IMG/VR virus record: IMGVR_UViG_3300028805_000083
Span: 1 to 37,571 of that record
Strand: one strand, 5' to 3'
Source: a virus
Lineage: Duplodnaviria; Heunggongvirae; Uroviricota; Caudoviricetes
Length of the DNA: 37,571 nucleotides
A model generated the notes under the pieces. It was not told the DNA's origin and made no database searches. It worked only from the letters and a program-made list of their open reading frames with translations. Of the stretch, positions 1 through 27,481 are shown piece by piece. The number at the start of each line of letters is the position of its first letter. The first letter of the stretch is position 1. Made by a program: the position numbers and the translations under genes.

Positions 1-112
1 CCACCTCTTCCAAGGTGTACGAGCCTACCTTACGCTTGTTGTTGTTCACCATGTCCACAGCAATCTCATGCTGCTCGGTGCTCAAATCGAAACTTTTAAT
101 TTCCTTGTTCAT
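1..112 (-). CDS. hypothetical protein (runs off the window edge)
   Basis: ATG at 112, open to the edge (MNKEIKSFDLSTEQHEIAVDM...), directly downstream of promoter 160-192. Confidence 0.75.
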   Translation of the reverse strand, partial: MNKEIKSFDLSTEQHEIAVDMVNNNKRKVGSYTLEEV

Positions 113-159
113 ACTGCTTTTACTTTTTAATTGTTAATACTGCTTTGTTGTTTGTTGAT

Positions 160-192
160 GCAAAGGTACGAAATTATTTTGAAATAACCAAA
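160..192 (-). promoter_or_regulatory. Bacteroidetes primary-sigma promoter (-33 TTTG / -7 TACCTTTG)
   Basis: Reverse complement TTTGgttatttcaaaataatttcgTACCTTTGC. Confidence 0.85.
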
Positions 193-196
193 TATT

Positions 197-337
197 TTAG
201 GAATTATTTTCAATTTTTCTAATAAGTTCCCTTGTCTCCATCATCTTTATTTTCTTTCTTAATTTGTTATTGTCGTGTATAAGCATGAAAACAATACACA
301 TCTGCACAACAGATAAAAATGCAATTAACTGCTCCAT
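197..337 (-). CDS. small membrane peptide, 46 aa
   Basis: Manual translation MEQLIAFLSVVQMCIVFMLIHDNNKLRKKIK...; own promoter at 385-417. Confidence 0.6.
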   Translation of the reverse strand: MEQLIAFLSVVQMCIVFMLIHDNNKLRKKIKMMETRELIRKIENNS

Positions 338-384
338 AACTCTAATCTTTTAATTAATAGAATACTGCTTTGTTGTTTTGTGTT

Positions 385-417
385 GCAAAGGTACGAAATT
401 ATTTTGAATTAACCAAA
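385..417 (-). promoter_or_regulatory. Bacteroidetes sigma promoter
   Basis: Same 33-bp motif. Confidence 0.85.
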
Positions 418-442
418 TTATTTTGGATGAAAATTTGTTAAA

Positions 443-478
443 AAACAACGATGGGCTTACCTCACGGCAAACCCATCA
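443..478 (-). terminator. intrinsic terminator
   Basis: GATGGG...CCCATC stem with an A-run on its left (U-tract on the minus strand), downstream of the tRNA-like gene. Confidence 0.55.
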
Positions 479-546
479 TCCAACTAAAAACCTAACAATT
501 CAAATTATGGAAAACAAAGAGCGTTATTACAACGCAACGAGCATAG

Positions 547-620
547 CACCCCTTGTAGGACTCGAACCTACGACCCTCGGTTGTTGGCAACCGATGCTCT
601 ACCAACTGAGCTATCAAGGC
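547..620 (-). tRNA. aberrant/pseudo tRNA, isotype undetermined (Trp-CCA-like or Gly-GCC-like)
   Basis: Canonical D arm (TAGCTCAGTTGGTAGAGC) and T arm (GTAGGTTCGAGTCCTAC), but an 8-nt anticodon loop (TCGGT-TGCCAACA-ACCGA) and a poorly paired acceptor stem. Confidence 0.7.
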
Positions 621-621
621 A

Positions 622-950
622 AAATGGGGATGGGCAACGGCAAGTCAAAATCGGCAACCACTCGGCACTGCCCTTTAATCCCCTTGTTAAATGTTAATAA
701 AAACCTCGTCTCTAAACCAACCTCTCTACTTTGCTGATAGAAATGTGCGCACGTTATCACATTTGGAGGGGGTGGATAAACTTGGCAAGGTAATGACCGA
801 AGATGCCCCAAAATGAACACCCAATGTAGCGGCTTTTAATAGCGGCTTGGGGGTGAATTGATGTGCCTATCGGAAGTGGCGATTATATGCAATACGGCAA
901 ACGCTCACTTGGCACTTAACGGCAGGGCTTAGATAGCGGTCTCTAAGTTT
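622..950 (-). ncRNA. candidate structured non-coding RNA, about 330 nt
   Basis: GC-richer segment with no convincing ORF and several stems (GTGCC/GGCAC+AAGTG/CACTT; AAATGTG/CACATTT; GGGGAT/ATCCCC+GGGCA/TGCCC), abutting the tRNA-like gene. Confidence 0.5.
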
Positions 951-1126
951 TTCTATTAGTCTTAATTAAATCAGTGTTATAATGTATTCCCTTAATAGTA
1001 TTTCTTTTTCATAACGTATAAGTTTTATATTTCGGCATTAAAATATATAATAAATAATAATTCTTATATCCCTTAATTGGGCGGAGGTCTTTCCATTATT
1101 CTCTCTGCTTTAATAGGTTTGACATT

Positions 1127-1303
1127 TTAGCGCATCTTGACGATGTTGTACAACTGCGTCTGCTTGGTGATTGGCTCACCAGTCTTTTTGTCGTACATCT
1201 GCTGACCATTCTCGTCCAAAGCGTAGTCTGTGCGCTTCTTTGATGGCACTGCCACCACTCGGTTGTTTCTAATGGCTTTGTTAAGCCTTTTCTGTCCACT
1301 CAT
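1127..1303 (-). CDS. hypothetical protein, 58 aa
   Basis: Manual translation MSGQKRLNKAIRNNRVVAVPSKKRTDYALDENGQQMYDKKTGEP...; below the track cutoff; promoter at 1351-1383. Confidence 0.7.
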   Translation of the reverse strand: MSGQKRLNKAIRNNRVVAVPSKKRTDYALDENGQQMYDKKTGEPITKQTQLYNIVKMR

Positions 1304-1350
1304 AGTTGCATTGTTTTTTATTTGTTATTTATTTTGTTTTCTTTCTCGAT

Positions 1351-1383
1351 GCAAAGATACGAAATTTTTTTGAAACTACCAAA
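1351..1383 (-). promoter_or_regulatory. Bacteroidetes sigma promoter
   Basis: -7 TATCTTTG, -33 TTTG. Confidence 0.85.
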
Positions 1384-1408
1384 TTTTTTAGTAGAAAATT
1401 AACAATAT

Positions 1409-1639
1409 TTAGCAATATTCTTTCTGTTCTTCAATAAATTCCTCTACCTCAACTTGCTCTTTGATGTCAGCGTTAAGTTTTTCCTCGTCAATATCAGAGA
1501 AATCATTGTCTCTGTCAGAACGATAGTCGTTGAGCGTTTTGCCATAGAGTTCGCATACAAACTCTCCGTCCTCTGTCACGCCAAGACCACTTATTGTCTA
1601 TCTCACTTGGTAGCCTAATTCTGTTTCGTAGATGCCCAT
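1409..1639 (-). pseudogene. 76-codon acidic hypothetical ORF interrupted by an in-frame TAG at codon 14
   Basis: MGIYETELGYQVR*TISGLGVTEDGEFVCELYGKTLNDY...KEYC-TAA; own promoter. Confidence 0.65.
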
Positions 1640-1666
1640 AATTATTATTGTTTTTTGTTTTGTGAT

Positions 1667-1699
1667 GCAAAGGTACGAAAAAAAATTGAATCGACCAAA
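1667..1699 (-). promoter_or_regulatory. Bacteroidetes sigma promoter
   Basis: Same 33-bp motif. Confidence 0.85.
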
Positions 1700-1787
1700 T
1701 AATTTCGCAACTTTTTTTGATTTTTTTTTCAAAGGTGGTGGGGATGATACCCCACACACCTTATTATATTAGATGATACTTACAGCC

Positions 1788-2363
1788 TTATGCGTTTGCA
1801 ACTGCAGGCTCCATAGCGGTCTCGGCTGCTGCCAACTCCGATTCCTCGGTCTTTTTGGCAATGCCCATGCCCTCAACGATAGCCTTGGCATTTTTCACAT
1901 CAATCTTGGGGTTGCTCTCCATGAGTTCCATTGCAGCCTTGAAGTCCTTGGTCTTGGTGCTGAACTTGTCGTAGAAACGACACAGAGCATGAGCCACGTT
2001 GGGGTTGCGGAACAACTTTTCGTTCTTGTGGTACTTGGCAAAGAGTTTCAGCCATGAGAAAATCTTCTCGGCTTTCTTCTCGTCAATCTTGGTGTAGCCA
2101 TCCTCAAACACCTCCTTGCGGTGTGCGTTCTTACCTACTGCGAAATACACAAGGTAAGTGATAGGATAGTTTCCGTTAGCCACCGACAACTCAACGAGTT
2201 TCTTGCAGATGTCAATGTGTTGCTGACGAAGTGCCTTGTGCTGCGGAAGTGTAAACCATATTGGCATTTTCACACCCTTACCACCATTATTCTCTGCCAC
2301 AAGACGAACACGTGTGTCAAGTGAAAACTTTTCCTTTTTTGTTTTTGTCTCTGTCTTTGCCAT
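1788..2363 (-). CDS. hypothetical protein, 191 aa
   Basis: Long ORF with promoter and AGGAGA upstream. Confidence 0.85.
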   Translation of the reverse strand: MAKTETKTKKEKFSLDTRVRLVAENNGGKGVKMPIWFTLPQHKALRQQHIDICKKLVELSVANGNYPITYLVYFAVGKNAHRKEVFEDGYTKIDEKKAEKIFSWLKLFAKYHKNEKLFRNPNVAHALCRFYDKFSTKTKDFKAAMELMESNPKIDVKNAKAIVEGMGIAKKTEESELAAAETAMEPAVANA

Positions 2364-2417
2364 AGTTTTAATCTCCTATTTTTTAATTGTTTGACTTATT
2401 GTTATTTCTTTTGTGAT

Positions 2418-2450
2418 GCAAAGGTACGAAAAAAATTTGAATCTACCAAA
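2418..2450 (-). promoter_or_regulatory. Bacteroidetes sigma promoter
   Basis: Same 33-bp motif. Confidence 0.85.
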
Positions 2451-2485
2451 TAATTTCTTATAAAAATCAGGCTCTTTAACCCTTT

Positions 2486-2941
2486 TTAACAAATGAGTTC
2501 AGATATTGTTGTGAAATCGCACACATGATAAACGTTATCCGCTTCATCACCATCTTCAAAATATGAACTTTGCAGCCATTCTGAAAGAGTTATTTCCATA
2601 AGGTGTTTGTCCTCAAAACGCACCCATACTTCATAGGTTTTTTCCTCAATGGTGAAATATGCAATGTAGCCGCCATTACCCTCTCTATCGAAATAATGCC
2701 TATTGATTTTGATGTCAAACACCCTCAGTGTTTCTAAAGGTGTGTCACCCTCTCCCAATGTTACTTTGTTTTTTATACCAATGGTGGCATAAACCCCACA
2801 AGGAGCAACATCTTTTCTCTTATCGGTATCATGGTAGAGAATGTCCTCAACCACTTTTTTTACCATAGTATTGCCATAGAAAGGGTTTTTGCTCCCATTT
2901 CTTGTTTCGGTCATTTCAACTCTTAACTTTGCTTCTACCAT
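2486..2941 (-). CDS. hypothetical protein, 151 aa
   Basis: ORF with AGGAGA 7 nt upstream. Confidence 0.8.
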   Translation of the reverse strand: MVEAKLRVEMTETRNGSKNPFYGNTMVKKVVEDILYHDTDKRKDVAPCGVYATIGIKNKVTLGEGDTPLETLRVFDIKINRHYFDREGNGGYIAYFTIEEKTYEVWVRFEDKHLMEITLSEWLQSSYFEDGDEADNVYHVCDFTTISELIC

Positions 2942-2962
2942 ATCTTTATCTCCTTTTATTTA

Positions 2963-3256
2963 TTATTTGAAATAAATTTTTGCTACATTAGGACAACTGC
3001 CATCATACTTACATAGATAGTGTTTGCTCACCAATTCTACACCAATTTCCTTAACCAACTTGTCAAGAGAGCGATTAATTCCACGAAGCGTATCACATTT
3101 GAGTTGAATCTCAATGCAACTACTTTCAACAAATATACTTATTGGAGCAACATCTGTGGAACAACCACTCATCCAATGGTGCTTATAGCCGTATTTTTCA
3201 AAGAAATTACTTTCGGTTATATTATCAGCAATTTCTTGTAATCTTTTCTTATCCAT
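2963..3256 (-). CDS. hypothetical protein, 97 aa
   Basis: Start moved to MDKKRLQEIA because the track start lies inside the promoter. Confidence 0.75.
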   Translation of the reverse strand: MDKKRLQEIADNITESNFFEKYGYKHHWMSGCSTDVAPISIFVESSCIEIQLKCDTLRGINRSLDKLVKEIGVELVSKHYLCKYDGSCPNVAKIYFK

Positions 3257-3288
3257 AACTCTAATCTCATTCTTATTGTTTTCTTGGT

Positions 3289-3320
3289 GCAAAGGTACGA
3301 AATTATTTTGAATTGACAAA
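3289..3320 (-). promoter_or_regulatory. Bacteroidetes sigma promoter
   Basis: Same motif. Confidence 0.85.
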
Positions 3321-3362
3321 ACGTTTTGAGGAAAATCTCTGGCTTCTTAACATTTTTTAACA

Positions 3363-3394
3363 AAAAAAATGGGTAGAGATTACTCTCCACCCAT
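3363..3394 (-). terminator. intrinsic terminator
   Basis: ATGGGTaGAGattaCTCtccACCCAT stem with an A8 run. Confidence 0.55.
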
Positions 3395-3435
3395 CGGAAC
3401 AACTAACATAAAACAATAAAAAACTATGAAAAAAC

Positions 3436-3606
3436 TTAGTCTGTTCTAAGTATCTTTGATTCATTTTCACTGCCGATAGTAAACTGACGAATATCAGCGT
3501 CCTCGGCTTTGTCTCTCGCTTTGTCAAGTGCTTCACCCTCGTCATTTGCCAAAACCTCAACAACGATAGAAGCATTATAATTCATTTGTATGGTATATCT
3601 GTGCAT
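3436..3606 (-). CDS. small acidic protein, 56 aa (DpnD/PcfM-like pattern)
   Basis: MHRYTIQMNYNASIVVEVLANDEGEALDKARDKAED...; the V-E-V-x-A-x3-EA pattern resembles DpnD/PcfM-type small proteins. Confidence 0.6.
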   Translation of the reverse strand: MHRYTIQMNYNASIVVEVLANDEGEALDKARDKAEDADIRQFTIGSENESKILRTD

Positions 3607-3640
3607 AATGTTTGTTTTCTTTTGAATTTATAATAGTTTG

Positions 3641-3961
3641 TTATTCTTTTGGCTTAATTTCCTTACCATCCTTATATAAGGTATTGAAAGCCATGAGCAC
3701 ATGAATAACGGTTATTTCCTCCTTATCAGAAATCTCACCAATGTACTCTATAACTGCATCCGATAACTCCTTACTATCCTTAACGGCTTTGAGTTGCGGA
3801 TAAACCATGTCAAAACGATGTCCTCTATAATCTTCGCAAATTGCGTGTCCATCGTAAATATCAAAAGGAATTGGTTTCTTAAAACCCTCTATGTTCAAAT
3901 TCTCGGAACAGACCTTTTTGCCATAGAATTTTTCCCAAATTTTACTTTCGTTGTTATTCAT
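3641..3961 (-). CDS. hypothetical protein, 106 aa
   Basis: ORF downstream of promoter 3992-4024. Confidence 0.8.
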   Translation of the reverse strand: MNNNESKIWEKFYGKKVCSENLNIEGFKKPIPFDIYDGHAICEDYRGHRFDMVYPQLKAVKDSKELSDAVIEYIGEISDKEEITVIHVLMAFNTLYKDGKEIKPKE

Positions 3962-3991
3962 TTCTCAAATAGTTTATTGTTTAATTCTTTG

Positions 3992-4024
3992 GCAAAGATA
4001 TAAAAAAAAAGGGGAAAAACCAAA
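3992..4024 (-). promoter_or_regulatory. Bacteroidetes sigma promoter
   Basis: -7 TATCTTTG, -33 TTTG; overlaps the GGGGA...TCCCC terminator hairpin at 4011-4037. Confidence 0.75.
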
Positions 4025-4079
4025 TTTTGGTCTCCCCAACTTACGTTAAAAAATATTAAAAAGAAGAATGATTATGGAT

Positions 4080-4451
4080 TCAATGTATTTTTATAATAGG
4101 TATCTTTTCTTCATTGTCAAACTTGATTATATAATCCCAATGAGCACCCATAGGGTCTTTGGAAAGCCTAATATAATGTATCTCTGACCTATCCGTTCCA
4201 TCACCATCTAAAACAAATTCATAAGCCTTATACAAGGTCTCAGAACGTGTCTCAGTCTCTATTTCGAGACGATAGCATTCTATGCCACAACCACTTTCGT
4301 AAGTGTCCACATATAGACTATCTTTTACAAAGGTGAAAAGCAATGTGGAATCATTTGTTATAAACTTCGTTGGTGTGGATGTCTGCCCATCAGCACAAGC
4401 AGACAACCCCACTGCTATTAATATTAAAGAAAAAAGAACGAAATTTCTCAT
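4080..4451 (-). CDS. putative lipoprotein, 123 aa
   Basis: Hydrophobic signal ending in the lipobox LSA-C. Confidence 0.7.
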   Translation of the reverse strand: MRNFVLFSLILIAVGLSACADGQTSTPTKFITNDSTLLFTFVKDSLYVDTYESGCGIECYRLEIETETRSETLYKAYEFVLDGDGTDRSEIHYIRLSKDPMGAHWDYIIKFDNEEKIPIIKIH

Positions 4452-4470
4452 TTTGCGTCAAATTTTAATA

Positions 4471-4641
4471 TTACTCAATACTCCAATCAATCACCAACCA
4501 ACCATAGGTGTCTGAAAGGTAATCGTTGATTGCATCATCATCTTTTGGGTCTATGCCATTTGGCAATTCTACTTCGTATGGTAAGCCAAGGCTTTCTTGT
4601 TCAACACCATCTGTTTCCCAAGTAATGTTTGTAATCTTCAT
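4471..4641 (-). CDS. small acidic protein, 56 aa
   Basis: MKITNITWETDGVEQESLGLPYEVELP...YLSDTYGWLVIDWSIE; promoter and AGGAGA upstream. Confidence 0.75.
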   Translation of the reverse strand: MKITNITWETDGVEQESLGLPYEVELPNGIDPKDDDAINDYLSDTYGWLVIDWSIE

Positions 4642-4670
4642 ATCTCTATCTCCTATTGTTTTATTGTGAT

Positions 4671-4703
4671 GTAAAGGTACGAAAAAAAATTGAATCTACC
4701 AAA
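4671..4703 (-). promoter_or_regulatory. Bacteroidetes sigma promoter (variant)
   Basis: Same motif; -7 element reads TACCTTTA. Confidence 0.75.
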
Positions 4704-4734
4704 TATTTTATTAGAAAAATGTGGTGGGGAAATG

Positions 4735-5556
4735 TTAAAATCCCCAATCCACATCTGTTTCGCTATCGAGGTCAATCACAAAAGGTGTCTGTGGTTTGGC
4801 AAAGTGACCGCTTTTGTAGTCGTTTGCAGTCTTATGATAGTGCAAGCCCATGATAGAACTATTAGGGTCAAGATAACGCATATCGTAAGAATTAGCGTCA
4901 ACCACATTCCAACCCCTAAACTGCTTTGGCAGCGTTTCATTCTCGCTATAGAACACAACGGCAACCTTACCACCATGCTGCAAAAACTTCTCGCACTCTT
5001 CCCAGTTATATCCGTCATAACTGAAAGTGAGGTCATAGTTAGGGTATTGTTCCATTAACTTCACTCTGTTGTAAACCTTTGTGTAGTCGTAGAACTGCAC
5101 ATCTGGAAATAACTCCAAAATGTTCTTTCCGCTTATAGGGTCTTTGAAAGCGAGAGGTGAAAGGTCGCTTGTACCATTTAAGCGCACACTAAAGCCATAT
5201 CCCATACGCTTTGCCCTTGCTCGTTTGCTCTCAATCTCATGCACAAGTATCTCCATGAAACGTGCCCTATCCTCATAGAACAACTTAGTTTTCTTGATAC
5301 GTGAACGATTTATCTTAGAGCCTTCCACACCCCTTGCAAGGGTATCACACTTGTTTAGTCCACTTCCGTTAAGGCAGAACTCATGGCAGTGCTGACCTTT
5401 GGGGCAAACATTATGCCCACTCATATTCCAAGGTGCGAGGTACAAGCAATAGGTCATTGTGCCATTCTCAAACGAAAGACGCATCTTTATACTCTGTGCC
5501 ACGTTACCAAGGTAACTAACTCCAATCTCGTTTAATGCTTTTCCGTAACCAATCAT
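4735..5556 (-). CDS. GP88-family (gene product 88-like) protein
   Basis: Motifs YLAP..GHNVCP..C..FCL..SG, VRLNGTSD, FYDYTK, YDLTFS; start moved to MIGYG after AGGAGA. Confidence 0.75.
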   Translation of the reverse strand: MIGYGKALNEIGVSYLGNVAQSIKMRLSFENGTMTYCLYLAPWNMSGHNVCPKGQHCHEFCLNGSGLNKCDTLARGVEGSKINRSRIKKTKLFYEDRARFMEILVHEIESKRARAKRMGYGFSVRLNGTSDLSPLAFKDPISGKNILELFPDVQFYDYTKVYNRVKLMEQYPNYDLTFSYDGYNWEECEKFLQHGGKVAVVFYSENETLPKQFRGWNVVDANSYDMRYLDPNSSIMGLHYHKTANDYKSGHFAKPQTPFVIDLDSETDVDWGF

Positions 5557-5606
5557 CTTTAATCTCCTTTTTAATTTATTGTTTAACGTGTTATCTGTTT
5601 CGTGAT

Positions 5607-5639
5607 GCAAAGGTACGAAATTATTTTGAATTAGCCAAA
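5607..5639 (-). promoter_or_regulatory. Bacteroidetes sigma promoter
   Basis: Same motif, with the 21-bp element at 5649-5669. Confidence 0.85.
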
Positions 5640-5691
5640 CAAAAATCAAATTATTTTCAATTTATAATAATTTTTTTCTGAATTATTTACA

Positions 5692-5726
5692 AAAAAAAGG
5701 ATTTACCATATAGATAAATCCTTTTT
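5692..5726. terminator. intrinsic terminator (bidirectional type)
   Basis: AAAAAGGATTTA...TAAATCCTTTTT. Confidence 0.6.
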
Positions 5727-5815
5727 AATCACCTTCATAAAAAAAGCATACATAGAATATACCAATCACTTCTATTAAGCCTAAAATGCAAGCAATTATA
5801 AAAAGTGTATACATA

Positions 5816-6184
5816 TTATTCTCCTATATATTTCACGCTTGCGGTCTGGCACCCACAATCTTTTCGGTTGCACAGAATGTTATAACCACTAAGCAACGTT
5901 TCGTCATAGGTATTAAGTATCATATCATCGTCAATTCTCTCACCACAATTAGGACAAGTTATAACAAAGTCCTCATAATTGTTTAATGGAAGATAGATGA
6001 TACCAAGTCCAATAAGGCATTTTAAGCCATTCTGAGACACTTTCCCATCATAGATAGCCAAACACCCCTCTACCCCATCAAAACTCTGTGTAAGGGCAAT
6101 CATATCAACATCTATTGCATCATTGATAATCATACCCATTTCTTCAGAGAAAACGTATATTCTAATCAGATATTCTTTATTCAT
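5816..6184 (-). CDS. hypothetical protein with a C-terminal Zn-ribbon-like motif
   Basis: CPNC...CNRKDCGC. Confidence 0.75.
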   Translation of the reverse strand: MNKEYLIRIYVFSEEMGMIINDAIDVDMIALTQSFDGVEGCLAIYDGKVSQNGLKCLIGLGIIYLPLNNYEDFVITCPNCGERIDDDMILNTYDETLLSGYNILCNRKDCGCQTASVKYIGE

Positions 6185-6447
6185 ACCAATTTATTGTTAT
6201 CTTCGCACCAATCATAAACCAACTCTATTGCTTGCTCAAGGCTTACATAAGAGTAAAATGTCCCCTCATGGGCATTATATGACACAAAAGGCTCTCCATT
6301 TACACTATCATCACCTTTTGTAAAATGCCAAGGTATCAAATACCCACAATAGAACACTTCATCACTTCCAATGGTTGTAACACCCATCTGTAATTTATAT
6401 GAATCTATTTTTTTGGGTAACTTTTTAAGTTTATCACTTAATGTCAT
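6181..6447 (-). CDS. hypothetical protein, 88 aa
   Basis: ORF with promoter and AGGAGA; ATGA overlap with the next gene. Confidence 0.8.
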   Translation of the reverse strand: MTLSDKLKKLPKKIDSYKLQMGVTTIGSDEVFYCGYLIPWHFTKGDDSVNGEPFVSYNAHEGTFYSYVSLEQAIELVYDWCEDNNKLV

Positions 6448-6479
6448 ATTCTAATCTCCTATATTTGTTTTATTGTGAT

Positions 6480-6512
6480 GCAAAGGTACGAAAAAAAATT
6501 GAATTAGCAAAA
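6480..6512 (-). promoter_or_regulatory. Bacteroidetes sigma promoter
   Basis: Same motif; adjacent to the ACCCCAACT/AGTTGGGGT terminator hairpin at 6517-6541. Confidence 0.85.
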
Positions 6513-6554
6513 TAAAACCCCAACTTTTTTTGAGTTGGGGTCTATTTTTAACAC

Positions 6555-7655
6555 TTATGCTGCAATTTTCATGCAAAGGTCATACGCACCTTGTACCTTG
6601 TTGTAGATATTTCCGTCAAGGATAGAGTCAAACTTGATTTCTGTGCTGCGCTCTGTCGCTTCATTCTGAAAGTAACTTGTCAGTCCATTCATCAGCCACA
6701 TGGCAGTACCCTTTTCTTGACCCTCTTGACCAATGCCACTTTCAAGGCACTCACGCACACCAAGGAACAAATTGCGTCCTCGTGTCTTGATGTCCTCATG
6801 GTTGATGTTTCTTGTCTCCATGAAAACCTTTGCAGCGTCCTTTGAGAGAACCGTCTGTGCGATAATGTTCTCCAAGTCTCTCTCTGCTAACTTGATGTTG
6901 CGAAGATGGTCGAAGCACTCTTTCATTCCATTAGTGTAAACCTTTGCCACGTTGAGAGCCTTATAAGCGAACTCTGCATTTTCTTGATTAAGCAAATCAA
7001 GTCTATCCATGACCTTAGAAGAATGACGGAAAGCAATACGTCCGATGTTGTCTTTCATTGCCCAATTAAGGGTATTGTTGCAGACTACACGCACTGGAGT
7101 AACCATACAACGAACTGAACCAGTGCCGTCATGTGATGTAGTGAAAACCACATACATATCTACCAAATCGTCACGCTGCGCATCAAGAACAATCTGCTGT
7201 GGGAACTTTGCGGTGACAAATACACGCTCTCCACGTCCTAATACTCCGCAAGTCTCAATTACTGGGGTGTTGTCTCTGTCTGCAAACTTACCGCTACAGA
7301 ACATATCCACGAACTTGAAAGCGGTCTCGTTCTGGACGATACCATATTTGTCGGACACAATGCCAAGTGACTTGTTGGTATCTGTGCGCACGGTTGCCCT
7401 TGTATTGTCGATGATAAGGGAGAGCAACTTGTCTGCTTCAATGCTCTCGCCATTCTCCATTGCATGAACAATCTCGTCAGACAAAGCAACCACTGGCTGC
7501 AACTTCACATTATAGTCAGCATGACACAACTTCAAAGCGTCTGCCACAAACATAGGCTCGTCAACCACTTGTCCAAGTCCATGCCAAGCACGCTCACGCT
7601 TGCCGTTCTCAGCGAAAGATGCTACACCATTTACCATTTCAATCATTGCACTCAT
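6555..7655 (-). CDS. DUF932-domain (TIGR03299-like phage/plasmid) protein
   Basis: AWHGLG, LGIVSDKYGIVQN..AF, ETCGVLGRGERVF, SHDGTGS...TPVRVVCNNTL. Confidence 0.9.
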   Translation of the reverse strand: MSAMIEMVNGVASFAENGKRERAWHGLGQVVDEPMFVADALKLCHADYNVKLQPVVALSDEIVHAMENGESIEADKLLSLIIDNTRATVRTDTNKSLGIVSDKYGIVQNETAFKFVDMFCSGKFADRDNTPVIETCGVLGRGERVFVTAKFPQQIVLDAQRDDLVDMYVVFTTSHDGTGSVRCMVTPVRVVCNNTLNWAMKDNIGRIAFRHSSKVMDRLDLLNQENAEFAYKALNVAKVYTNGMKECFDHLRNIKLAERDLENIIAQTVLSKDAAKVFMETRNINHEDIKTRGRNLFLGVRECLESGIGQEGQEKGTAMWLMNGLTSYFQNEATERSTEIKFDSILDGNIYNKVQGAYDLCMKIAA

Positions 7656-7705
7656 AATAAATCTCCTTTTTGATTAAATTAATAACTATGTTTCTGAATC
7701 ACGAT

Positions 7706-7738
7706 GCAAAGGTACGAAATTATTTTCAATCTACCAAA
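7706..7738 (-). promoter_or_regulatory. Bacteroidetes sigma promoter
   Basis: Same motif, with the 21-bp element at 7748-7768. Confidence 0.85.
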
Positions 7739-7793
7739 CAAAAAATAAATTATTTTCAATTTATAATAGTTTTTTTCTCATTTCTTGACAAAA

Positions 7794-8192
7794 TTACCTT
7801 TTTTTCTTTGGCTTTTTAATGACTTCTACCCTAATTTTCTCTTTCTTGAAATTCTTTTGAGACTTATGCTGCAATATATCTATGTAATGATTAAACCTCT
7901 TATTCATGGTGTCTCGCACTTCATAATACCCATGTCCTTCTATATGAATCACACTACCCAAAGGGATGTACCGAAGCAAATCTCTGCTCACGGCACAATA
8001 TTTAATTTTTCCACTTTTGAGTTTTTTCATGTCAATCTTTGTACCATCAGCAGTAATCAATGGACTATCGTCACATTGACTTGCAACTGCATTATAAGTG
8101 GTTAAAGTAACATGAGTTATAAACTTCTTGTCTTTGGCAAAGGTGACAGAAGCCACCAATGCCATTATAAAGGTGATAAATAACTTTCTCAT
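7794..8192 (-). CDS. secreted 3D-domain (RlpA/MltA-like double-psi barrel) protein
   Basis: Signal peptide; TTYN..ITADG, CAVSRD, IPLGSVIHIEG.G.YEVRDT, IDIL. Confidence 0.85.
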   Translation of the reverse strand: MRKLFITFIMALVASVTFAKDKKFITHVTLTTYNAVASQCDDSPLITADGTKIDMKKLKSGKIKYCAVSRDLLRYIPLGSVIHIEGHGYYEVRDTMNKRFNHYIDILQHKSQKNFKKEKIRVEVIKKPKKKR

Positions 8193-8515
8193 TCAAACCA
8201 ATTCAAAATGTCTAATAAAAGGTCAATAGAGTTAATATTTTCAAGATTGTTGGTCTCGTCCTCTTTCCATGAATAAACGTAAACACAACCACAATCACGT
8301 ATTATTGTGAAAATGTATTCGTCCTTAGAGCCAAGCAGTAACTTATTTTGCTTTGTGGCATTATAGATTTCTTCCATTGCGTTTCTGATTGAAGAACGAA
8401 TCTCACAAGCGAGGTCGTTTGTCTTTTCCTCTAAGGTGTCAAAATCAGCACTTGCCTTACCACTAATTTTGCCGTTCTTCACCAACTCAAAATAATCATT
8501 TCTTTCTAAAATCAT
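8189..8515 (-). CDS. hypothetical protein, 108 aa
   Basis: ORF in an operon, ATGA overlap. Confidence 0.75.
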   Translation of the reverse strand: MILERNDYFELVKNGKISGKASADFDTLEEKTNDLACEIRSSIRNAMEEIYNATKQNKLLLGSKDEYIFTIIRDCGCVYVYSWKEDETNNLENINSIDLLLDILNWFE

Positions 8516-8518
8516 AAC

Positions 8519-8947
8519 TTAATAAGGATAATCAATTTCTTTAAAATAATCTATAATCTTTTTAGAGGTCTCTGCTGCATACTGATTGCGAGGGTCAAAA
8601 CGTCCATTCTCACAATTCTCAGCCAACAACTTGATATACTCCAAGCATACCTTAAACATTTCGCTTTGTAGGTATCTGTGCTCACGGCACATCATTTCTG
8701 CAACGTGCTTCTTGCTATGCAACTTGCCATTAACAAAGTTGCCAAAAAAACGTGCAAACACATCGTCCATGTTCTCGCCACATTTTGGGCAAAGGTCATA
8801 CTCAAAACGTTTCAATACCATTTCCATGAGAAAATCTCTATCCTCAGAACAAGCCTTGGTATCATCTTTAATGAGACGAACAATCTGCTCATTGCTCAAC
8901 TGATAGTCCTCATACTCACGTCCGTCAATAGTAAACTTCTTATTCAT
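8519..8947 (-). CDS. hypothetical protein, 142 aa
   Basis: ORF with promoter and AGGAGA. Confidence 0.85.
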   Translation of the reverse strand: MNKKFTIDGREYEDYQLSNEQIVRLIKDDTKACSEDRDFLMEMVLKRFEYDLCPKCGENMDDVFARFFGNFVNGKLHSKKHVAEMMCREHRYLQSEMFKVCLEYIKLLAENCENGRFDPRNQYAAETSKKIIDYFKEIDYPY

Positions 8948-8975
8948 ATTTCAAATCTCCTTTTTTAATTCTGCT

Positions 8976-9008
8976 GCAAAGGTACGAAAAAAAATTCATT
9001 CCACCAAA
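8976..9008 (-). promoter_or_regulatory. Bacteroidetes sigma promoter (left arm of a divergent pair)
   Basis: Same motif, with the 21-bp element at 9018-9038. Confidence 0.85.
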
Positions 9009-9101: not shown

Positions 9102-9134
9102 TTTGGTTATTTCAAAATAAATTCGTACCTTTGC
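9102..9134 (+). promoter_or_regulatory. Bacteroidetes sigma promoter (right arm of a divergent pair)
   Basis: TTTGgttatttcaaaataaattcgTACCTTTGC. Confidence 0.85.
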
Positions 9135-9163
9135 ACCACAAAACAACAATAAACAAAAAGAAA

Positions 9164-9394
9164 ATGGATAAACACTTGAATGTAAGAGTAATCGGAGTGC
9201 CAAAAAGTGCGTCCTACGATAAAAAGTGGATGGACACAATCTCTGACAAGGAAATGAGTGAACTTGCTCTTTCTGATGGAGACACGGCAATCTTTGAGAG
9301 CATGGAAGAGTTCAGCGAGGTTGTTTTGAACAACCCAAGCGCAAAAGAACAACTCCTTAGTAATTGGTGGTATTTCTTAACTGACTTGGCATGA
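9164..9394 (+). CDS. hypothetical protein, 76 aa
   Basis: ATG at 9164 (MDKHLNVRVIG); the track's TTG start is inside the promoter. Confidence 0.75.
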   Translation: MDKHLNVRVIGVPKSASYDKKWMDTISDKEMSELALSDGDTAIFESMEEFSEVVLNNPSAKEQLLSNWWYFLTDLA

Positions 9395-9738
9395 GAAAAA
9401 TCTATCTGACGATAGCCAAGGCTCTCTATAAACCCTCACCAAAGGTTGAGGGTCTTGTGCTAAAATTATGTGACTTGTTTGACAAGCCACTACCAAACGG
9501 AGTGACTATAACCTCTCTAACATTCAAAGAGGGTGCTCTAAAAGTTGGTGGTTTGTCTGTCAAGGAACTCATCAGAGGTGGGCAACATTGTGGAGTAGAG
9601 GTACATTGGTATCCAGATTTCACAAAGTCCACTAATATTGACCCATTTTGTAGTGCGTTCATATTGCGCTACAACTCTCTCGAAAAACTCTACCGTGAGG
9701 TGGAAAAGGTAATCTCTCAGATGAGAGATAATGCGTAA
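9391..9738 (+). CDS. hypothetical protein, 115 aa
   Basis: ATGA overlap with the previous gene. Confidence 0.75.
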   Translation: MRKIYLTIAKALYKPSPKVEGLVLKLCDLFDKPLPNGVTITSLTFKEGALKVGGLSVKELIRGGQHCGVEVHWYPDFTKSTNIDPFCSAFILRYNSLEKLYREVEKVISQMRDNA

Positions 9739-9865
9739 ACAACATTTAAACTTAGTATTAATCTTAACAGTACTGGCCCCATTGTTGTTGAAACAGTGGG
9801 GATGTACGTCATTTCACTGACGTTCAATGGCAACAACTGCCGTTGTACTTATTTAAGTCTTTAAC

Positions 9866-10051
9866 ATGGTAAATAGAGTTAATTATCGCATCGGATTTTA
9901 TACGAGAGACGGAATCTTTAGCGTATTAGGCAATAAGAAACGCTTTCGTAACTTCTTCCATACAAGGGAAATGGCTGAAGAAAAACGCAAAGAACTTCAA
10001 GGAAACTATAAACATAGACTAGAAATAAAACCATTCCATTATAGTTTCTAA
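9866..10051 (+). CDS. small hypothetical protein, 61 aa
   Basis: ATG 6 nt after repeat copy 1. Confidence 0.7.
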   Translation: MVNRVNYRIGFYTRDGIFSVLGNKKRFRNFFHTREMAEEKRKELQGNYKHRLEIKPFHYSF

Positions 10052-10106
10052 AACAGACCCACATTGTACTTATTTAAGTCTATTTATATATTATTGGGCG
10101 TAATAA

Positions 10107-10139
10107 TTTGTTTTTCTCAATTATTTTTCATATCTTTGC
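10107..10139 (+). promoter_or_regulatory. Bacteroidetes sigma promoter
   Basis: TTTG-N21-TATCTTTGC. Confidence 0.8.
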
Positions 10140-10189
10140 ACTGTATATTCGTACCCAATTGGGTAACGATATTTAATAAATCTTAAGAT

Positions 10190-10405
10190 ATGGCAAAATA
10201 TTATATTGAAACAAATGAAGGGCGTAAATATATTAAAGAAATTGACTACGCTCAAGGAAAACTCACATTCACAAATAATGAAGAAGAAGCATACAGAGGT
10301 AGGGATGGCTTTTATGCCAACGCTACTAGGGATATGATACGTAGAGGCTTCAAGGATGACTACCCAGAAGTAGAGAATCTAGAGTGCGATGCCGCATACT
10401 ACTAA
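10190..10405 (+). CDS. small hypothetical protein, 71 aa (paralogue of 10496-10726)
   Basis: YIKEIDYAQGKLTFTNNEEEA vs YLKTLDTAEGKIEFTTEPNEA. Confidence 0.8.
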   Translation: MAKYYIETNEGRKYIKEIDYAQGKLTFTNNEEEAYRGRDGFYANATRDMIRRGFKDDYPEVENLECDAAYY

Positions 10406-10495
10406 ATATCCCATCTGTAGACCATTGCGTCTTCAATGGCAACAGCCAATCTGTACTTATTTAAGTCTAATTATTAATAATAAAGTATACTAACT

Positions 10496-10726
10496 ATGGG
10501 AGGTTATCTATTACAGAATTCAAACGATGAGTATCTGAAAACTCTAGATACGGCTGAAGGTAAAATTGAGTTTACCACAGAACCAAATGAAGCAAGAAAT
10601 TATAGCGGTCGTCCAGGTGGTGGACAATGGGATGCTGATAATGAAAAACAATACCTAGACTTCCACTTCGGAGAAGAGTATGGAGAAAGAGTAACATCAT
10701 TACATTGTGTTTACCGTGAATGGTAA
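10496..10726 (+). CDS. small hypothetical protein, 76 aa
   Basis: Paralogue of 10190-10405; follows repeat copy 3. Confidence 0.8.
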   Translation: MGGYLLQNSNDEYLKTLDTAEGKIEFTTEPNEARNYSGRPGGGQWDADNEKQYLDFHFGEEYGERVTSLHCVYREW

Positions 10727-10806
10727 ACTCCACCCCCTACTTGTAGACCGCTTCAGCGGAATTCAGCGGCAACAACGTGCTGTTGTACTTATTTAAGTCC
10801 AATATT

Positions 10807-11019
10807 ATGGGAAAAGCAATATTAGAGTTTACTATCAATGGGAGAAAACATACATACTTCAGAAGAAAAGACCTATATGGGAAACCATTAACCACTACTA
10901 ATAAAAATAGTGCCAAACATCTAAAAGAATCTGAAGTTAAAAATACTGTGGCACTTCTTATTAAAGAATATGGTAAGGATAATATTACTGACGTGAATAT
11001 AATTAAGGATGAAAAATAA
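10807..11019 (+). CDS. small hypothetical protein, 70 aa
   Basis: ATG (MGKAILEF) 7 nt after repeat copy 4; followed by the AAGGATGAA/TTCATCCTT terminator. Confidence 0.75.
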   Translation: MGKAILEFTINGRKHTYFRRKDLYGKPLTTTNKNSAKHLKESEVKNTVALLIKEYGKDNITDVNIIKDEK

Positions 11020-11230
11020 AACTTCATCCTTTTTTTATATCCATAAAAAAAATATCCAAACGTTTCACAACGTCTGGATACCTTCGCTTAAGCTTTAACC
11101 TTAATAATCTAATACCATGAAAAACACATTTTACTTAAAACTCTAAAATTTAATCTTATGTCTAATAGAATTTCTTATTTCATAATATAAATATATCTTA
11201 CACCCTATTTGTACTTATTTAAGTCCAAAT

Positions 11231-11725
11231 CTATCCAAAAAATGTACCATCATTCTCAGGCCACCTACCCTCCGTCTCAAATATAACCTTGGGCTGTTGT
11301 ATCTTGGGTAACAACATCTTGGCATCATGCTCATGCAAAGAATCAAGGAGATTCTTATATGAACCACGTATGTTGAGATTCTTGGTTCCAGTATAACATG
11401 TGATATATACAGTACCTAAGTTCTTGATAATACCCTTCTGATAAAACTCTAAAAATATACCACTTGACCTCAAAAAATTCTCAAATGCCTCCAACTGATA
11501 AAATGCACGTGGAGCTTTACTTGGGTCAGACCACTCATAGAAATAAATGTTCACAGAATTATCCTTATACGCATTTGGTATCCTATGTATATTATCTAAT
11601 ACAACACCATTATTATAACGACTGTTATAATAATCATTATAATATGGGGTAGTAGTCTTAGGAGTTCTTCTCTTATTAATTAGATATTCTCTAAATAAAT
11701 CCCTTAAATCCTTACTTCTATTCAT
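11231..11725 (-). CDS. hypothetical protein, 164 aa
   Basis: ORF; paralogous to 11732-12421. Confidence 0.8.
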   Translation of the reverse strand: MNRSKDLRDLFREYLINKRRTPKTTTPYYNDYYNSRYNNGVVLDNIHRIPNAYKDNSVNIYFYEWSDPSKAPRAFYQLEAFENFLRSSGIFLEFYQKGIIKNLGTVYITCYTGTKNLNIRGSYKNLLDSLHEHDAKMLLPKIQQPKVIFETEGRWPENDGTFFG

Positions 11726-22260: not shown

Positions 22261-24156
22261 TCACTCCTCCCTTAGTTTCTTTAAATCATTATATAAAGAA
22301 CTTAAAACCCGAACTTCTGTTGGAAAAGTAACTTCGTTGTATGCTTCGATACACTTTTTAAGAAATTCCATTTGCTCATCACTCGGTTTCCAAGTGTATC
22401 TGTCTTTGAGGGATTTTCTCAGCCAATCCACAAGTGAACAATCTCCGCCAAAGAATTTCATAACAGCATACTCTGTTCGCCTAAGATTTGTTTCATCCTC
22501 TTCACTCCAAGCATGTGGTTGCTCAATCTTCTTTAACTCTTTCTTCTCAAAGTCAAAGGTATATCCTGCATCAGTCATTGCCTTTTCAAGCGCATCATGC
22601 TGCTCTTTAGTAGCAGGACATATCTTATTTCTTGTAGTTACTGACACATTATCCACTTCTTTACTATGGAAATTATTTGTTTGCCCGTTATACCAACAAT
22701 ATAAAGAAATACGGTTTTGTACTGAGTATGATTTGAATAGTAAAATTTCTTCATTACAAACAAGTATATCACCATCCTTTGCATCTTTATTAATGTCCCA
22801 CAAACGATAATCGTTGTCTACAAGTTCTGTGCAAAGTGCCCCGATGGTATCCCCACCGAAATCAAGTCTATAATTATCTTTTAATACCTCAAGAACCCTT
22901 ACTACATTACCGTATTCAATGTTTACAAGCCAATCACCTTCATGAAACTTTGGCTCAACCTTATCAGCAGGCTTCTGCTCAACAATATCATTTTGGAATA
23001 CAGAATTACCGTCCTTATCCTCATACATTGGGTTATCTGTTCCGTCTTCAACAATATTGGCAATGGTAAAACTTACCAATCTTCCAAATGAGTTATAGTA
23101 AATAGTGTCGCCAACTTTATGTTTAGGAGTGTGCTTCTGCTCAATTTTCTTTAACTCTTTCTTTTCAAAGTCAAAGGTATATCCTGCATCAGCCATTGCT
23201 TTCATTAAAGCATCACGCTGCTCTTTGGTGGCAGGATGAGTATCAATTTGTTCATGACGACCTCCAATGCTAAAACCTCGAAGTTCACCATCACATTCAA
23301 GATAGATATAAGAATGCCAACATATACCTTCACATCTTGAAAAAATACCTATGTTATTATATTTATCAGCAAGCACATCACCATTCTTTGCATCTTGGAT
23401 AGTCCAAAGATGAATTTTATCATCATTTAAAAATTTACTTGAAGTAAAATCTTTTCCATTAATATCAAGCCCAACATAATATTGTTCTTGTACATCAAGT
23501 ATTTGCGCAACAGTATTGCCTCTTACAACCCAGTCTCTTTCATGAAACTTTGGCTCAACCTTATCAGCAGGCTCTTGTTTCTCTACTAACTTAACAGGAC
23601 ATTCTTCAATACAACCTGCCCTATCACAAGTCTCACAAATGTCATGATGATTAGCATTATCAACTTTTTCTTCTTTGATTGCTTCAAGTGCTGATTTACC
23701 TTGTTCTCCTTGCTTTTCAAGACAACAGTCATATTCTACTTCTTTGAAGAAACTATTATGTTCTTCTTTACTATATTTAGGACAATAATATGTACATGCT
23801 TGATTTATTAAAGAGTAATCTTCGGGAGAATAGTATTTTACACCTTTTATCCATTCTACACCTGCATATTTGTGTGTTTTTGTACACAAATAATTTTTAC
23901 CTTTCTTAATTTTTATAGATTTACCTTGCTTTTCAAGCCAAGCAAGAATATCTTTCTTAGGTATTAAACAATAGGTAGTGTTATCGTCTTGTAACTCGAA
24001 GAATGTGATAATTGCTTTCCTTATCTTCTCATCCTCATTCTCTTCTTTGAGTTCTGGGAAGATATAGTTTAACTCTTTTTCGCTAAACATTCGTTTTGCT
24101 TTTGCAATAGCCTCGTCATATCTTTGAGCTTTTTGTTCTATCGTCAGTTCTTTCAT
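22261..24156 (-). CDS. modular mosaic protein with internal duplications, 631 aa
   Basis: PADKVEPKFH, DAK(N/D)GD(V/I)L and PATKEQ.DAL.KAM.DAGYTFDFEKKELKKIEQ each occur twice. Confidence 0.9.
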   Translation of the reverse strand: MKELTIEQKAQRYDEAIAKAKRMFSEKELNYIFPELKEENEDEKIRKAIITFFELQDDNTTYCLIPKKDILAWLEKQGKSIKIKKGKNYLCTKTHKYAGVEWIKGVKYYSPEDYSLINQACTYYCPKYSKEEHNSFFKEVEYDCCLEKQGEQGKSALEAIKEEKVDNANHHDICETCDRAGCIEECPVKLVEKQEPADKVEPKFHERDWVVRGNTVAQILDVQEQYYVGLDINGKDFTSSKFLNDDKIHLWTIQDAKNGDVLADKYNNIGIFSRCEGICWHSYIYLECDGELRGFSIGGRHEQIDTHPATKEQRDALMKAMADAGYTFDFEKKELKKIEQKHTPKHKVGDTIYYNSFGRLVSFTIANIVEDGTDNPMYEDKDGNSVFQNDIVEQKPADKVEPKFHEGDWLVNIEYGNVVRVLEVLKDNYRLDFGGDTIGALCTELVDNDYRLWDINKDAKDGDILVCNEEILLFKSYSVQNRISLYCWYNGQTNNFHSKEVDNVSVTTRNKICPATKEQHDALEKAMTDAGYTFDFEKKELKKIEQPHAWSEEDETNLRRTEYAVMKFFGGDCSLVDWLRKSLKDRYTWKPSDEQMEFLKKCIEAYNEVTFPTEVRVLSSLYNDLKKLREE

Positions 24157-24721: not shown

Positions 24722-24820
24722 TTATTTGTTACTTTTAAAAGACTTACTAATGTTTCGTTTTGCTCTTGCAATAGCCTCGTCATATCTTTGAGCTTTTTGT
24801 TCTATCGTCAGTTCTTTCAT
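24722..24820 (-). pseudogene. truncated duplicate of the 5' end of the 631-aa gene
   Basis: About 70 bp at 24755-24824 nearly identical to 24091-24160; MKELTIEQKAQRYDEAIA then diverges and stops. Confidence 0.8.
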
Positions 24821-26785: not shown

Positions 26786-27481
26786 TTATAATTTTTCGTT
26801 TTTAGACCACATAAAGTTTTTATGCTGTTTGTATTTACCACTACAACAGAGTGATACGCATGATGGTGAGAATCCTTCCTCTTCGGTTGCTTTAACACTA
26901 TCCCATCGTTTCACTAGATTACCATCCATATCAAACTGATACACAACGGTTTTCTTCTTTCCACTATTTTTACGTGGATGGAGTCTCTGACTCCTTTTGA
27001 AATTCTCAATCGTTTCTGGCTTATTCAAATTTTCCTTGTGTGTCATCAAGCATAGATTCTCCAAGTTGTTATTCTGTGGATTTGTATCTATATGGCACAC
27101 AATCAATCCATCTGGTATTTCACCATTAAAGGCTTTCCATACTAACTGATGAACATAGAAATGTTTTCCTTTAGCCTCTTTATTCGATAGAGAAACGTGT
27201 AGGTATCTAGTGGAAGGTATTTTTCCAGGTAATAGTGTTTTACCGAATTTATTCTTTACCTCTCCATGCTTATTCACCTTATAGTTTTCAAAATCAGGAA
27301 TTTGCTTCCACTCTTCTTCATCTAGTTGAGCAGAAGCATTTTCCAATTTCTTGGCTACTACCGATTCGTGGTATTTTTTCCTAGCTTGTTCCCTTATTCT
27401 CTCTTTATTGGCTTGATACCAATTCTTAGAGTAGTTGGGATTTTGCTCTCTCCATTTTTTAGCTTGTACAGAAGATGACAT
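26786..27481 (-). CDS. free-standing HNH homing endonuclease (NUMOD4 + HNH + NUMOD1-like)
   Basis: WKQIPDFENYKVNKHGEVKN; VHQLVWKAF..IVCHIDTNPQNNNLENL; VYQFDMDGNLVKRWDSV. Confidence 0.9.
   Translation of the reverse strand: MSSSVQAKKWREQNPNYSKNWYQANKERIREQARKKYHESVVAKKLENASAQLDEEEWKQIPDFENYKVNKHGEVKNKFGKTLLPGKIPSTRYLHVSLSNKEAKGKHFYVHQLVWKAFNGEIPDGLIVCHIDTNPQNNNLENLCLMTHKENLNKPETIENFKRSQRLHPRKNSGKKKTVVYQFDMDGNLVKRWDSVKATEEEGFSPSCVSLCCSGKYKQHKNFMWSKNEKL

Follow-up and report, generated by a model that had tools for sequence, protein, structure and literature searches.

The first 37.6 kb of the 101,571-base viral record IMGVR_UViG_3300028805_000083 (IMG/VR; CheckV completeness 34%; G+C 34%), a stretch of 37,571 nt that we refer to here as the window, carries five copies of a 16-mer, TGTACTTATTTAAGTC, that delimit a series of small genes. 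As well as describing this array, our comparison with related phages allows a tentative reading of the repeated sequence: with somewhat less than even confidence, we regard it as a punctuation mark of transcription that is peculiar to these phages, and most likely as a compact promoter that operates together with terminators. Huge phages that infect gut and rumen Bacteroidota have not been cultured, and transcription control in them is poorly understood. A site of 18 bp that is present in 8-9 copies per 300-410-kb genome, and that marks islands flanking the densest early-promoter region, represents a testable handle on this process. Identifying the reader of the site, for which a phage sigma factor, a repressor and a DNA enzyme are the candidates, would define a regulatory gene class, whose members are small, evolve fast and probably take part in host takeover.

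All five exact 16-mers lie on the plus strand, at 9844-9859, 10065-10080, 10452-10467, 10784-10799 and 11210-11225 (copies 1 to 5). With up to three mismatches allowed, the window holds six matches against 1.05 expected, a number reached by none of 100 shuffled sequences, and no extra copy was found at up to two mismatches in the entire 101,571-base record. The intervals between successive copies measure 221, 387, 332 and 426 bp, and each contains one small open reading frame (ORF) of 61, 71, 76 or 70 aa, respectively. The start codon of ORF1 lies 6 nt past copy 1, and that of ORF4 lies 7 nt past copy 4. Within the 16-mer is the dyad ACTTA-TT-TAAGT. Copies 1, 3 and 4 are ‘filled’, with a 36-42-nt hairpin unit beginning TGTA(C/G) immediately upstream, and copies 2 and 5 have an ‘empty’ form (CCC-N4). 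An earlier note, made from the letters of the window alone, had reported five 16-mers in one orientation with no others noticed in the window, a single ORF of 61-76 aa in every interval of 221-426 bp with two start codons 6-7 nt downstream of the repeat, the dyad, and the filled and empty forms. Each of these observations proved correct, the last of them through orthologous sites that are empty in relatives and empty alleles of copies 3 and 4 in sequencing runs.

An exact-match scan found the 16-mer in 55 viral-contig stretches, many of them multi-copy, on contigs of 295-412 kb. Copies were counted in four complete relatives (295-412 kb) and one 86-kb fragment: at up to two mismatches each record holds 8-9 copies, all on a single strand, and the backwards control gave 0-1. 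These relatives make up a clade of rumen phages with genomes of roughly 300-410 kb and promoters of Bacteroidota type, and the array locus is present in sheep-rumen metatranscriptome runs. In the complete genomes, the copies fall into two clusters about 25 kb apart, in the central part of a genome that carries terminal repeats. One of these, cluster B, is syntenic with the window array; the other, cluster A, would fall beyond the left end of the window contig. Host-type promoters are densest between the two clusters, where 33 lie within 30 kb.

About 50 copies drawn from seven genomes gave the consensus YGTACTT-WWWW-AAGT(C/A), with a pyrimidine as the next base. Its arms are invariant, its spacer is variable with a bias towards T, and no other position within 40 nt on either side is conserved. 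Variants ending AAGTA-C form a perfect GTACTT/AAGTAC palindrome. In the 295-kb genome G002, the pattern ACTT-W4-AAGT occurs nowhere except at these sites. The identical motif and the same layout are found even in distant relatives, in which the product of the gene that converges on the array is just 29-41% identical. The bacterial genomes that we scanned contained the motif as single scattered matches only, without clusters, and a literature search on the motif letters returned nothing relevant. Taken together, the invariance across relatives and the isolated nature of the bacterial matches argue that the site is under strong selection and specific to this phage clade.

The copies share the orientation of the island genes, and their contexts are otherwise mixed. 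In about a third, a same-strand ORF without a host-type promoter begins 2-31 nt downstream; eight copies lie 26-41 nt upstream of a host-type promoter, in what could be a tandem-promoter layout. About half of the copies stand behind a stable hairpin. The 47 nt upstream of distinct copies fold with a mean of -8.7 kcal/mol, compared with -5.4 for shuffled sequences and -4.8 for the downstream side, and an upstream fold of -8 kcal/mol or lower was found for 51% of copies, compared with 14-16% in controls. Empty copies have no unit stem, and many of them instead follow ordinary terminators.

The hairpin units are of two types. In the window, a type I unit with two hairpins, starting TGTAC, precedes copy 1 (9803-9843, plus strand), and type II units precede copy 3 (10416-10451, plus strand, starting TGTAGACC) and copy 4 (10742-10783, plus strand). 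The conserved box of the unit, TTCAAYGGCAACA, is found at 0-1 mismatch only beside the motif; a scan of viral contigs with the box TTCAATGGCAACAAC was discarded, as it returned almost exclusively single chance matches. The second hairpin of the unit, CAATGGCAAC-AAC-GTTGCCGTTG, occurs with variants that show compensatory stem changes among units. Its last two bases are the TG with which the 16-mer begins, TACTTATTT comes next, and a simple scan scored the combination of second hairpin and TACTTATTT as terminator-like at 9825-9845 (copy 1) and 10764-10785 (copy 4).

At orthologous sites the units are polymorphic. The unit before copy 1 is present in the window and missing from G002 and L233. At copy 3, the window and L047 have a unit and L009, L024 and L043 lack it, and at copy 5 a unit is missing from the window and present in G004 and G005. 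Alleles of copies 3 and 4 without a unit, found in relatives, were also seen in one DNA run (X1, copy 3) and one RNA run (X21, copy 4). One unit type can occupy non-orthologous copies, even 25 kb apart. At L092 (G004:188756-188838), a single motif copy is preceded by two tandem units, both of which begin with TGTAC. Copy 3 of G002 retains the box alone, which suggests that the unit decays by deletion, and units may be gained and lost by slippage or gene conversion instead of transposition. A hairpin mini-element that sits only at this site represents an unexplained small mobile or unstable feature.

These data are consistent with a model in which the 16-mer is the core of an 18-bp protein recognition site, tTGTACTT-WWWW-AAGTC-Y, that punctuates transcription units in small plus-strand gene islands. 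The site would be read by the host RNA polymerase together with a phage-encoded sigma factor, or by another phage factor, and transcripts would begin at or just past its 3′ end, giving very short leaders. The upstream hairpin would usually halt transcription arriving from the left, either as an ordinary terminator or as the 36-45-nt unit, which would use the T-rich core of the motif as its U-tract. Because one shared site bounds every module, recombination between copies could replace, delete or add modules, in the manner of the promoter-early stem-loop (PeSL) elements discussed below.

We favour a promoter because of the co-orientation of the copies, the succession of hairpin, motif and start codon, the T-biased spacer, the near-invariance of the sequence and the sigma factors of the relatives. 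ORF1 and ORF4 display the predicted layout, a terminator-like hairpin followed by the motif and then by an ATG 6-7 nt on. The spacer is T-biased on the coding strand, where GTACTTTTTT partly resembles the phage's own -7 box, GTACCTTTG. Matches to Sigma70_r2 were found in G004 (four, three of them over the cut-off) and G002 (two), with none in the window's own fragment, and in one relative a sigma-70-family protein with regions 2 and 4 is encoded 1.3 kb from cluster A. The phage sigma factors, one of them beside the sister cluster, are possible candidates for the reader of the site. As for a phage RNA polymerase, a search with Rpb2_6 was negative, and a T7-type search was uninformative, its control having given no match. 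The earlier note had offered a regulon under a phage-specific promoter or operator as one of two explanations, and this is the one that fits better with a site that is invariant, phage-specific and often situated behind hairpins, in phages whose relatives encode sigma factors.

The proposed site is distinct from the host-type promoters of this phage. The record contains 46 promoters of the form TTTG-N19-21-TAnnTTTG on the minus strand, compared with 3.8 expected on both strands combined, and two host-type promoters on the plus strand in the array region, at 9102-9133 and 10107-10138. An analysis of k-mer enrichment upstream of G002 genes recovered the host-type promoter class only, and no second abundant class.

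Transcription of the island was observed in RNA runs, among them X21 and X4. These runs, like the DNA run X1, are assembled contigs, in which transcript starts, transcript ends and strand are not readable. The material represents real RNA, because RNA depth falls about 20-fold past 12.5 kb while DNA depth is flat. In run X4, the contig carrying ORF4 has a depth of 31.7, compared with 20.4 for the contig carrying ORF2 and ORF3, despite the hairpin between them, which we count as weak evidence. RNA contigs start at 9154 and 9159, after the 9102 promoter, and at 10161, after the 10107 promoter; these starts are weak hints. Adapter letters stand directly at 9154 and 11240 in RNA contigs, implying that many fragments end there, although both are single observations and the strand is not known. 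Position 9154 is about 15-20 nt past the 9102 promoter box, and 11240 is 14 nt beyond copy 5. Contig boundaries that are identical in the DNA and RNA runs were attributed to assembly breaks and not to transcript ends.

A number of observations weigh against a promoter. The invariant arms form a dyad that a promoter does not explain, and we found neither a conserved -33/-35 partner element nor a -33 TTTG/-7 TAnnTTTG pair in or around the motif. About a third of the copies meet the 3′ end of a converging gene, whose stop codon is -7 to +9 nt away, and have no same-strand gene to drive, two copies lie inside a 5′ untranslated region (UTR) behind a host-type promoter, and two copies in G003 lie antisense between minus-strand genes. 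Leaders of 2-9 nt also count against the model, because leaders shorter than 10 nt are rare in Bacteroides (3.7%; PMC7366714). In the RNA data, ORF1 is weakly covered in X4 (3.6), and the X21 contig ends at 10452, 10783 and 11204 coincide with the filled/empty polymorphism. Bipartite versions of a promoter, in which TTGTAC would serve as a -35 element or the motif would act as a -30 element resembling a MotA box, were considered separately and rejected, since start codons follow the motif by 2-9 nt and no downstream position is conserved.

The dyad lends itself to a different explanation, in which a dimeric phage protein binds two 6-bp half-sites one helical turn apart and represses or insulates the islands through a block to RNA polymerase from either side, thereby stopping both read-through between modules and converging transcription at the island border. 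We consider such an operator or roadblock the main rival of the promoter, although rather unlikely. It would account for the invariance of the arms GTACTT/AAGT(C/A), between which only a 4-nt A/T spacer varies, and for the perfect palindromes of the AAGTA-C variants. The independence of the contexts from the direction of neighbouring genes, encompassing gene starts, host-type promoters, the 5′ UTR, converging stop codons and the minus-strand genes of G003, is equally in keeping with a block that acts on both sides. The adapter-tagged RNA contig end at 11240, some 14 nt from copy 5, is what a stalled polymerase would leave if the RNA is minus-strand mRNA, with the proviso that this is a single observation of unreadable strand. 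However, a symmetric operator does not require the single orientation of the copies or the conservation of asymmetric positions (T1, C16, Y17 and the T-biased spacer). Searches of the island genes with Pfam and PHROG, and of the atlas for ORFb, recognised no DNA-binding protein, and the distances of the motif from host-type promoters (-70 to -85, or +18) do not suit classical repression. Furthermore, a block at every intergenic site would silence ORF1, ORF3 and ORF4.

The islands also show a pattern of gene replacement that is anchored in the motif. The variable slot of cluster B has four alternative contents: where the window carries ORF1, relatives have unrelated 46-aa or 35-aa ORFs, or nothing. 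A second variable slot, between the last two copies of cluster A, likewise holds four unrelated genes. In blastn comparisons, the window ceases to be homologous to G002, L233, L009 and L024 at 9807 and matches them again from 10057-10064, so that the breakpoints coincide with the motif copies bounding ORF1. At the terminal copy of cluster A, the sequences to the left and to the right are seen in all four combinations. Motif-bounded variable slots of this kind show where the phages try new small genes. Among the relatives compared, module order is never shuffled and no module has moved from one cluster to the other.

From the window alone, the earlier note had proposed an integron-like or accordion-like cassette system, to be recognised by cassette number and order polymorphism with junctions in the 16-mer and by a tyrosine or serine recombinase. 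The weaker form of this idea stands, in that one slot per island holds unrelated genes and homology breaks exactly at the motif. A dedicated machine is not supported. Order is fixed, the site is conserved in sequence, host-type promoters lie inside the array, and searches for Phage_integrase (PF00589), Resolvase (serine recombinase) and Y1_Tnp found none in the window's own record or in the four complete relatives, the PF00589 control being positive in 14 of 14 genomes. An integron-like system is thus unlikely, and the variation represents module replacement at a shared boundary sequence, matching PeSL elements. The array as a whole is a vertically inherited, operon-like series in which ORF2 and ORF3 are tandem paralogs.

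A dedicated system need not belong to a known recombinase family. We judge it improbable that the 16-mer is the crossover site of an unrecognised phage DNA enzyme that cuts staggered at TGTAC, and slightly more improbable still that a phage enzyme inserts and excises single-gene cassettes and a 40-nt hairpin element by dedicated, integron-like recombination at the site. In the former case, modules and a hairpin mini-element targeting this one position would move between the copies of both islands, and huge phages would possess a gene-capture system independent of the recombinase families. Direct copies do flank every module, so that n modules have n+1 sites, their orientation is uniform regardless of the direction of the intervening genes, the breakpoints of the variable slots are at the motif, and invariant arms are typical of enzyme recognition sites. 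The occurrence of the same unit types at non-orthologous copies 25 kb apart, at a fixed position in the site and with a TGTA(C) direct repeat, points in the same direction. Weighed against these are the absence of tyrosine and serine recombinases and of a Y1 HUH transposase from the four complete relatives, the fixed module order without inter-cluster exchange, the restriction of variability to a single slot per island, the tandem paralogy of ORF2 and ORF3, and units, such as that at copy 3 of G002, that resemble decay intermediates and not clean insertions.

Two further explanations fare worse. It is very doubtful that the site acts at the RNA level, as a sequence in a polycistronic mRNA that is bound by a translational repressor or cleaved by an endoribonuclease beside the start codon. 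The site does fill short stop-to-start spacers (2-15 nt after a stop codon and 2-28 nt before an ATG), upstream hairpins could shield processed 3′ ends, and motif-adjacent island genes have no Shine-Dalgarno (SD) sequence, whereas minus-strand early genes have AGGAGAT. Many copies, however, stand behind canonical terminators or in places without an expected plus-strand transcript, as the terminal copies and those ahead of promoters do, the possible stem comprises just four A/U-rich pairs, and the arms show no compensatory changes. Least probable of all is another strand-specific DNA transaction (T5-like specific nicks, a polar replication barrier or origin-associated sites), which would suit the absolute strand uniformity, the few copies per genome and the position of the clusters near the middle of a terminally repeated genome, but for which we found no supporting feature, the GC skew of G002 following gene strand without an origin signal and the sites being tied to gene boundaries at 2-9 nt.

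In every relative, cluster B consists of a promoter, ORFa, ORFb, a hairpin, the motif, the variable slot and the motif, followed by a second promoter, ORF2, the motif, ORF3, the motif, ORF4 (often lost), a terminator and the terminal motif, which abuts the stop codon of the converging gene. In the window, the first operon of the island is preceded by a sigmaA-type Bacteroidota promoter, TTTG-N20-TAccTTTG, identified by pattern scan (9102-9133, plus strand). ORFa (9164-9394, plus strand; 76 aa) is conserved and opens cluster B in all relatives, and ORFb (9391-9738, plus strand; 115 aa) is likewise kept in all of them. The hairpin that follows ORFb (9777-9801, plus strand) has a 10-bp stem without a T-run of its own, and in G002 the motif lies directly 3′ of it. 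ORF1 (9866-10051, plus strand; 61 aa) occupies the variable slot. Copy 2 is positioned 26 nt upstream of the -33 element of the ORF2 promoter, another sigmaA-type Bacteroidota promoter found by pattern scan (10107-10138, plus strand) and conserved in relatives.

ORF2 (10190-10405, plus strand; 71 aa) and ORF3 (10496-10726, plus strand; 76 aa) are paralogs with 34% identity. An origin of the array by fourfold duplication of one family was ruled out, as comparisons with hhalign showed ORF1 and ORF4 to be unrelated to the ORF2/ORF3 family. ORF4 (10807-11019, plus strand; 70 aa) is lost or decayed in G001, G002 and G004, and a bidirectional terminator hairpin between an A-run and a T-run lies at its end (11005-11031). 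The converging gene (11231-11725, minus strand; 164 aa; 29-76% identity in relatives) and the terminal copy 5 are separated by 5 nt, counted from the stop codon, an arrangement common to all relatives. Pfam and PHROG searches found no family for ORFa, ORFb, ORF1 to ORF4, the converging gene or the 203-aa and 94-aa proteins of cluster A, and an atlas search with ORFb gave no match. ORF3 has a confidently predicted beta3-alpha-beta fold (predicted local distance difference test score 92), which in a fold search resembles uncharacterised small phage proteins only, with no known DNA-binding match.

A candidate non-coding gene lies in the last interval of the array, just downstream of the converging gene. 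A FopS-like small RNA (sRNA; RF04319) was detected at 11043-11127 on the minus strand, with 55 bits against a gathering threshold of 56 (E 1.2e-6), and is kept in the two closest relatives, at L234:4629-4710 (58.5 bits, above gathering) and L233:4538-4619 (50.2 bits). FopS-type sRNAs of Bacteroides repress SusC-like transporters (PMC11697453). Sequencing depth spikes at this locus (3468 in the X1 DNA run and 153 in the X21 RNA run), because host sRNA copies also map to it. We rejected the motif, read on the reverse strand, as the promoter of this RNA, since the spacing between the two ranges from 33 to 112 nt among close relatives. Cluster A1 contains a second candidate non-coding RNA, a conserved ORF-free segment of about 450 nt that lies behind a host-type promoter at L093:3250-3720 and at the equivalent place in G001 and G005. 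The segment has a tRNA-like GGTTCGAATCC arm, two terminators at its end and flanking motif copies, and neither Rfam nor ARAGORN gave a match.

Several features outside the island were recorded in the course of the analysis. On the minus strand of window positions 1-9008, eleven promoters within 9 kb share a nearly identical 32-nt form (TTTGGT..TTCAAAATAATTTCGTACCTTTG), in what looks like a hyper-early region whose promoter repeats are themselves PeSL-like. Many minus-strand early starts (for example, 8947, 7655 and 5649) have an SD-like AGGAGAT 6-9 nt before them, in a phage whose host phylum mostly lacks SD sequences. ARAGORN identified a tRNA at 548-621 (minus strand) whose enlarged loop contains a four-base anticodon (ccaa). 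The promoter pattern was also found opposite to the local gene strand at 24095-24126 and 24759-24790 (plus strand), in near-identical stretches of about 70 nt that lie 660 nt apart and are probably a duplicated gene segment. Lastly, an HNH homing-endonuclease gene (PHROG 59, E 4.5e-34) is located at 26786-27481 (minus strand).

The earlier statement that no described element has this architecture was too strong, as the PeSL regulatory cassettes of T4-type phages come close to it (Arbiol et al. 2010, PMC2839356; Comeau et al. 2014, PMC4122927). Both combine a repeated intergenic motif with a stem-loop or terminator ahead of small ORFans in a plastic early region, and in both the indel and replacement junctions between related phages lie at the motif, without a dedicated recombinase. 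PeSLs, in contrast, are composites of about 100 bp that incorporate a canonical host sigma-70 promoter and number about 50 per genome. The conserved portion of the present site is 18 bp long, near-palindromic and without a host-type -33/-7 pair, it is present in 8-9 copies per genome, confined to two clusters and one strand, and the host-type promoters of the phage are a separate, abundant class.

We also compared the site with elements that resemble it in one respect or another. Integron attI/attC arrays have one small gene per interval, n+1 boundary sites and uniform orientation; the array described here belongs to a huge phage of lytic type, and has a fixed gene order, internal promoters and no integrase. 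Moreover, attC sites are imperfect palindromes of 57-141 bp that are conserved in structure and variable in sequence, whereas the present site consists of an invariant 16-18 bp without conserved flanks. The hairpin unit of 36-45 nt, considered on its own, is reminiscent of repetitive extragenic palindromic (REP) sequences and palindrome-associated transposable elements (PATEs), with which it shares a short hairpin, a foot tetranucleotide (GTAG or GTAC), presence/absence polymorphism and a single orientation. It differs from them in being found only fused to the 16-mer, in its conserved box TTCAAYGGCAACA and in the absence of a Y1/RAYT transposase. Operators of dimeric repressors and protein roadblocks (lambda-type; EcoRI-Q111, LacI) likewise have 6-bp half-sites one turn apart, a free A/T spacer and an action independent of gene direction, but our site has a conserved asymmetry and orientation and lies at atypical distances from promoters, and no cognate protein was identified.

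The compact promoters of other phages, namely the 23-bp promoters of T7 type, the T4 late promoter TATAAATA read by gp55 and the hairpin promoters of the N4 virion polymerase, are short and near-invariant, occur in few copies and in one orientation, lie near the transcript start and are read by a phage-encoded factor. Our site is likewise short, near-invariant, rare and of one orientation, and for it a nearby transcript start and reading by a phage factor are proposed here; dyad symmetry and the third of copies without a downstream gene set it apart. Overall, we would place this strongly conserved site, as a new form, among the promoter/terminator punctuation elements that double as recombination junctions in large lytic phages.

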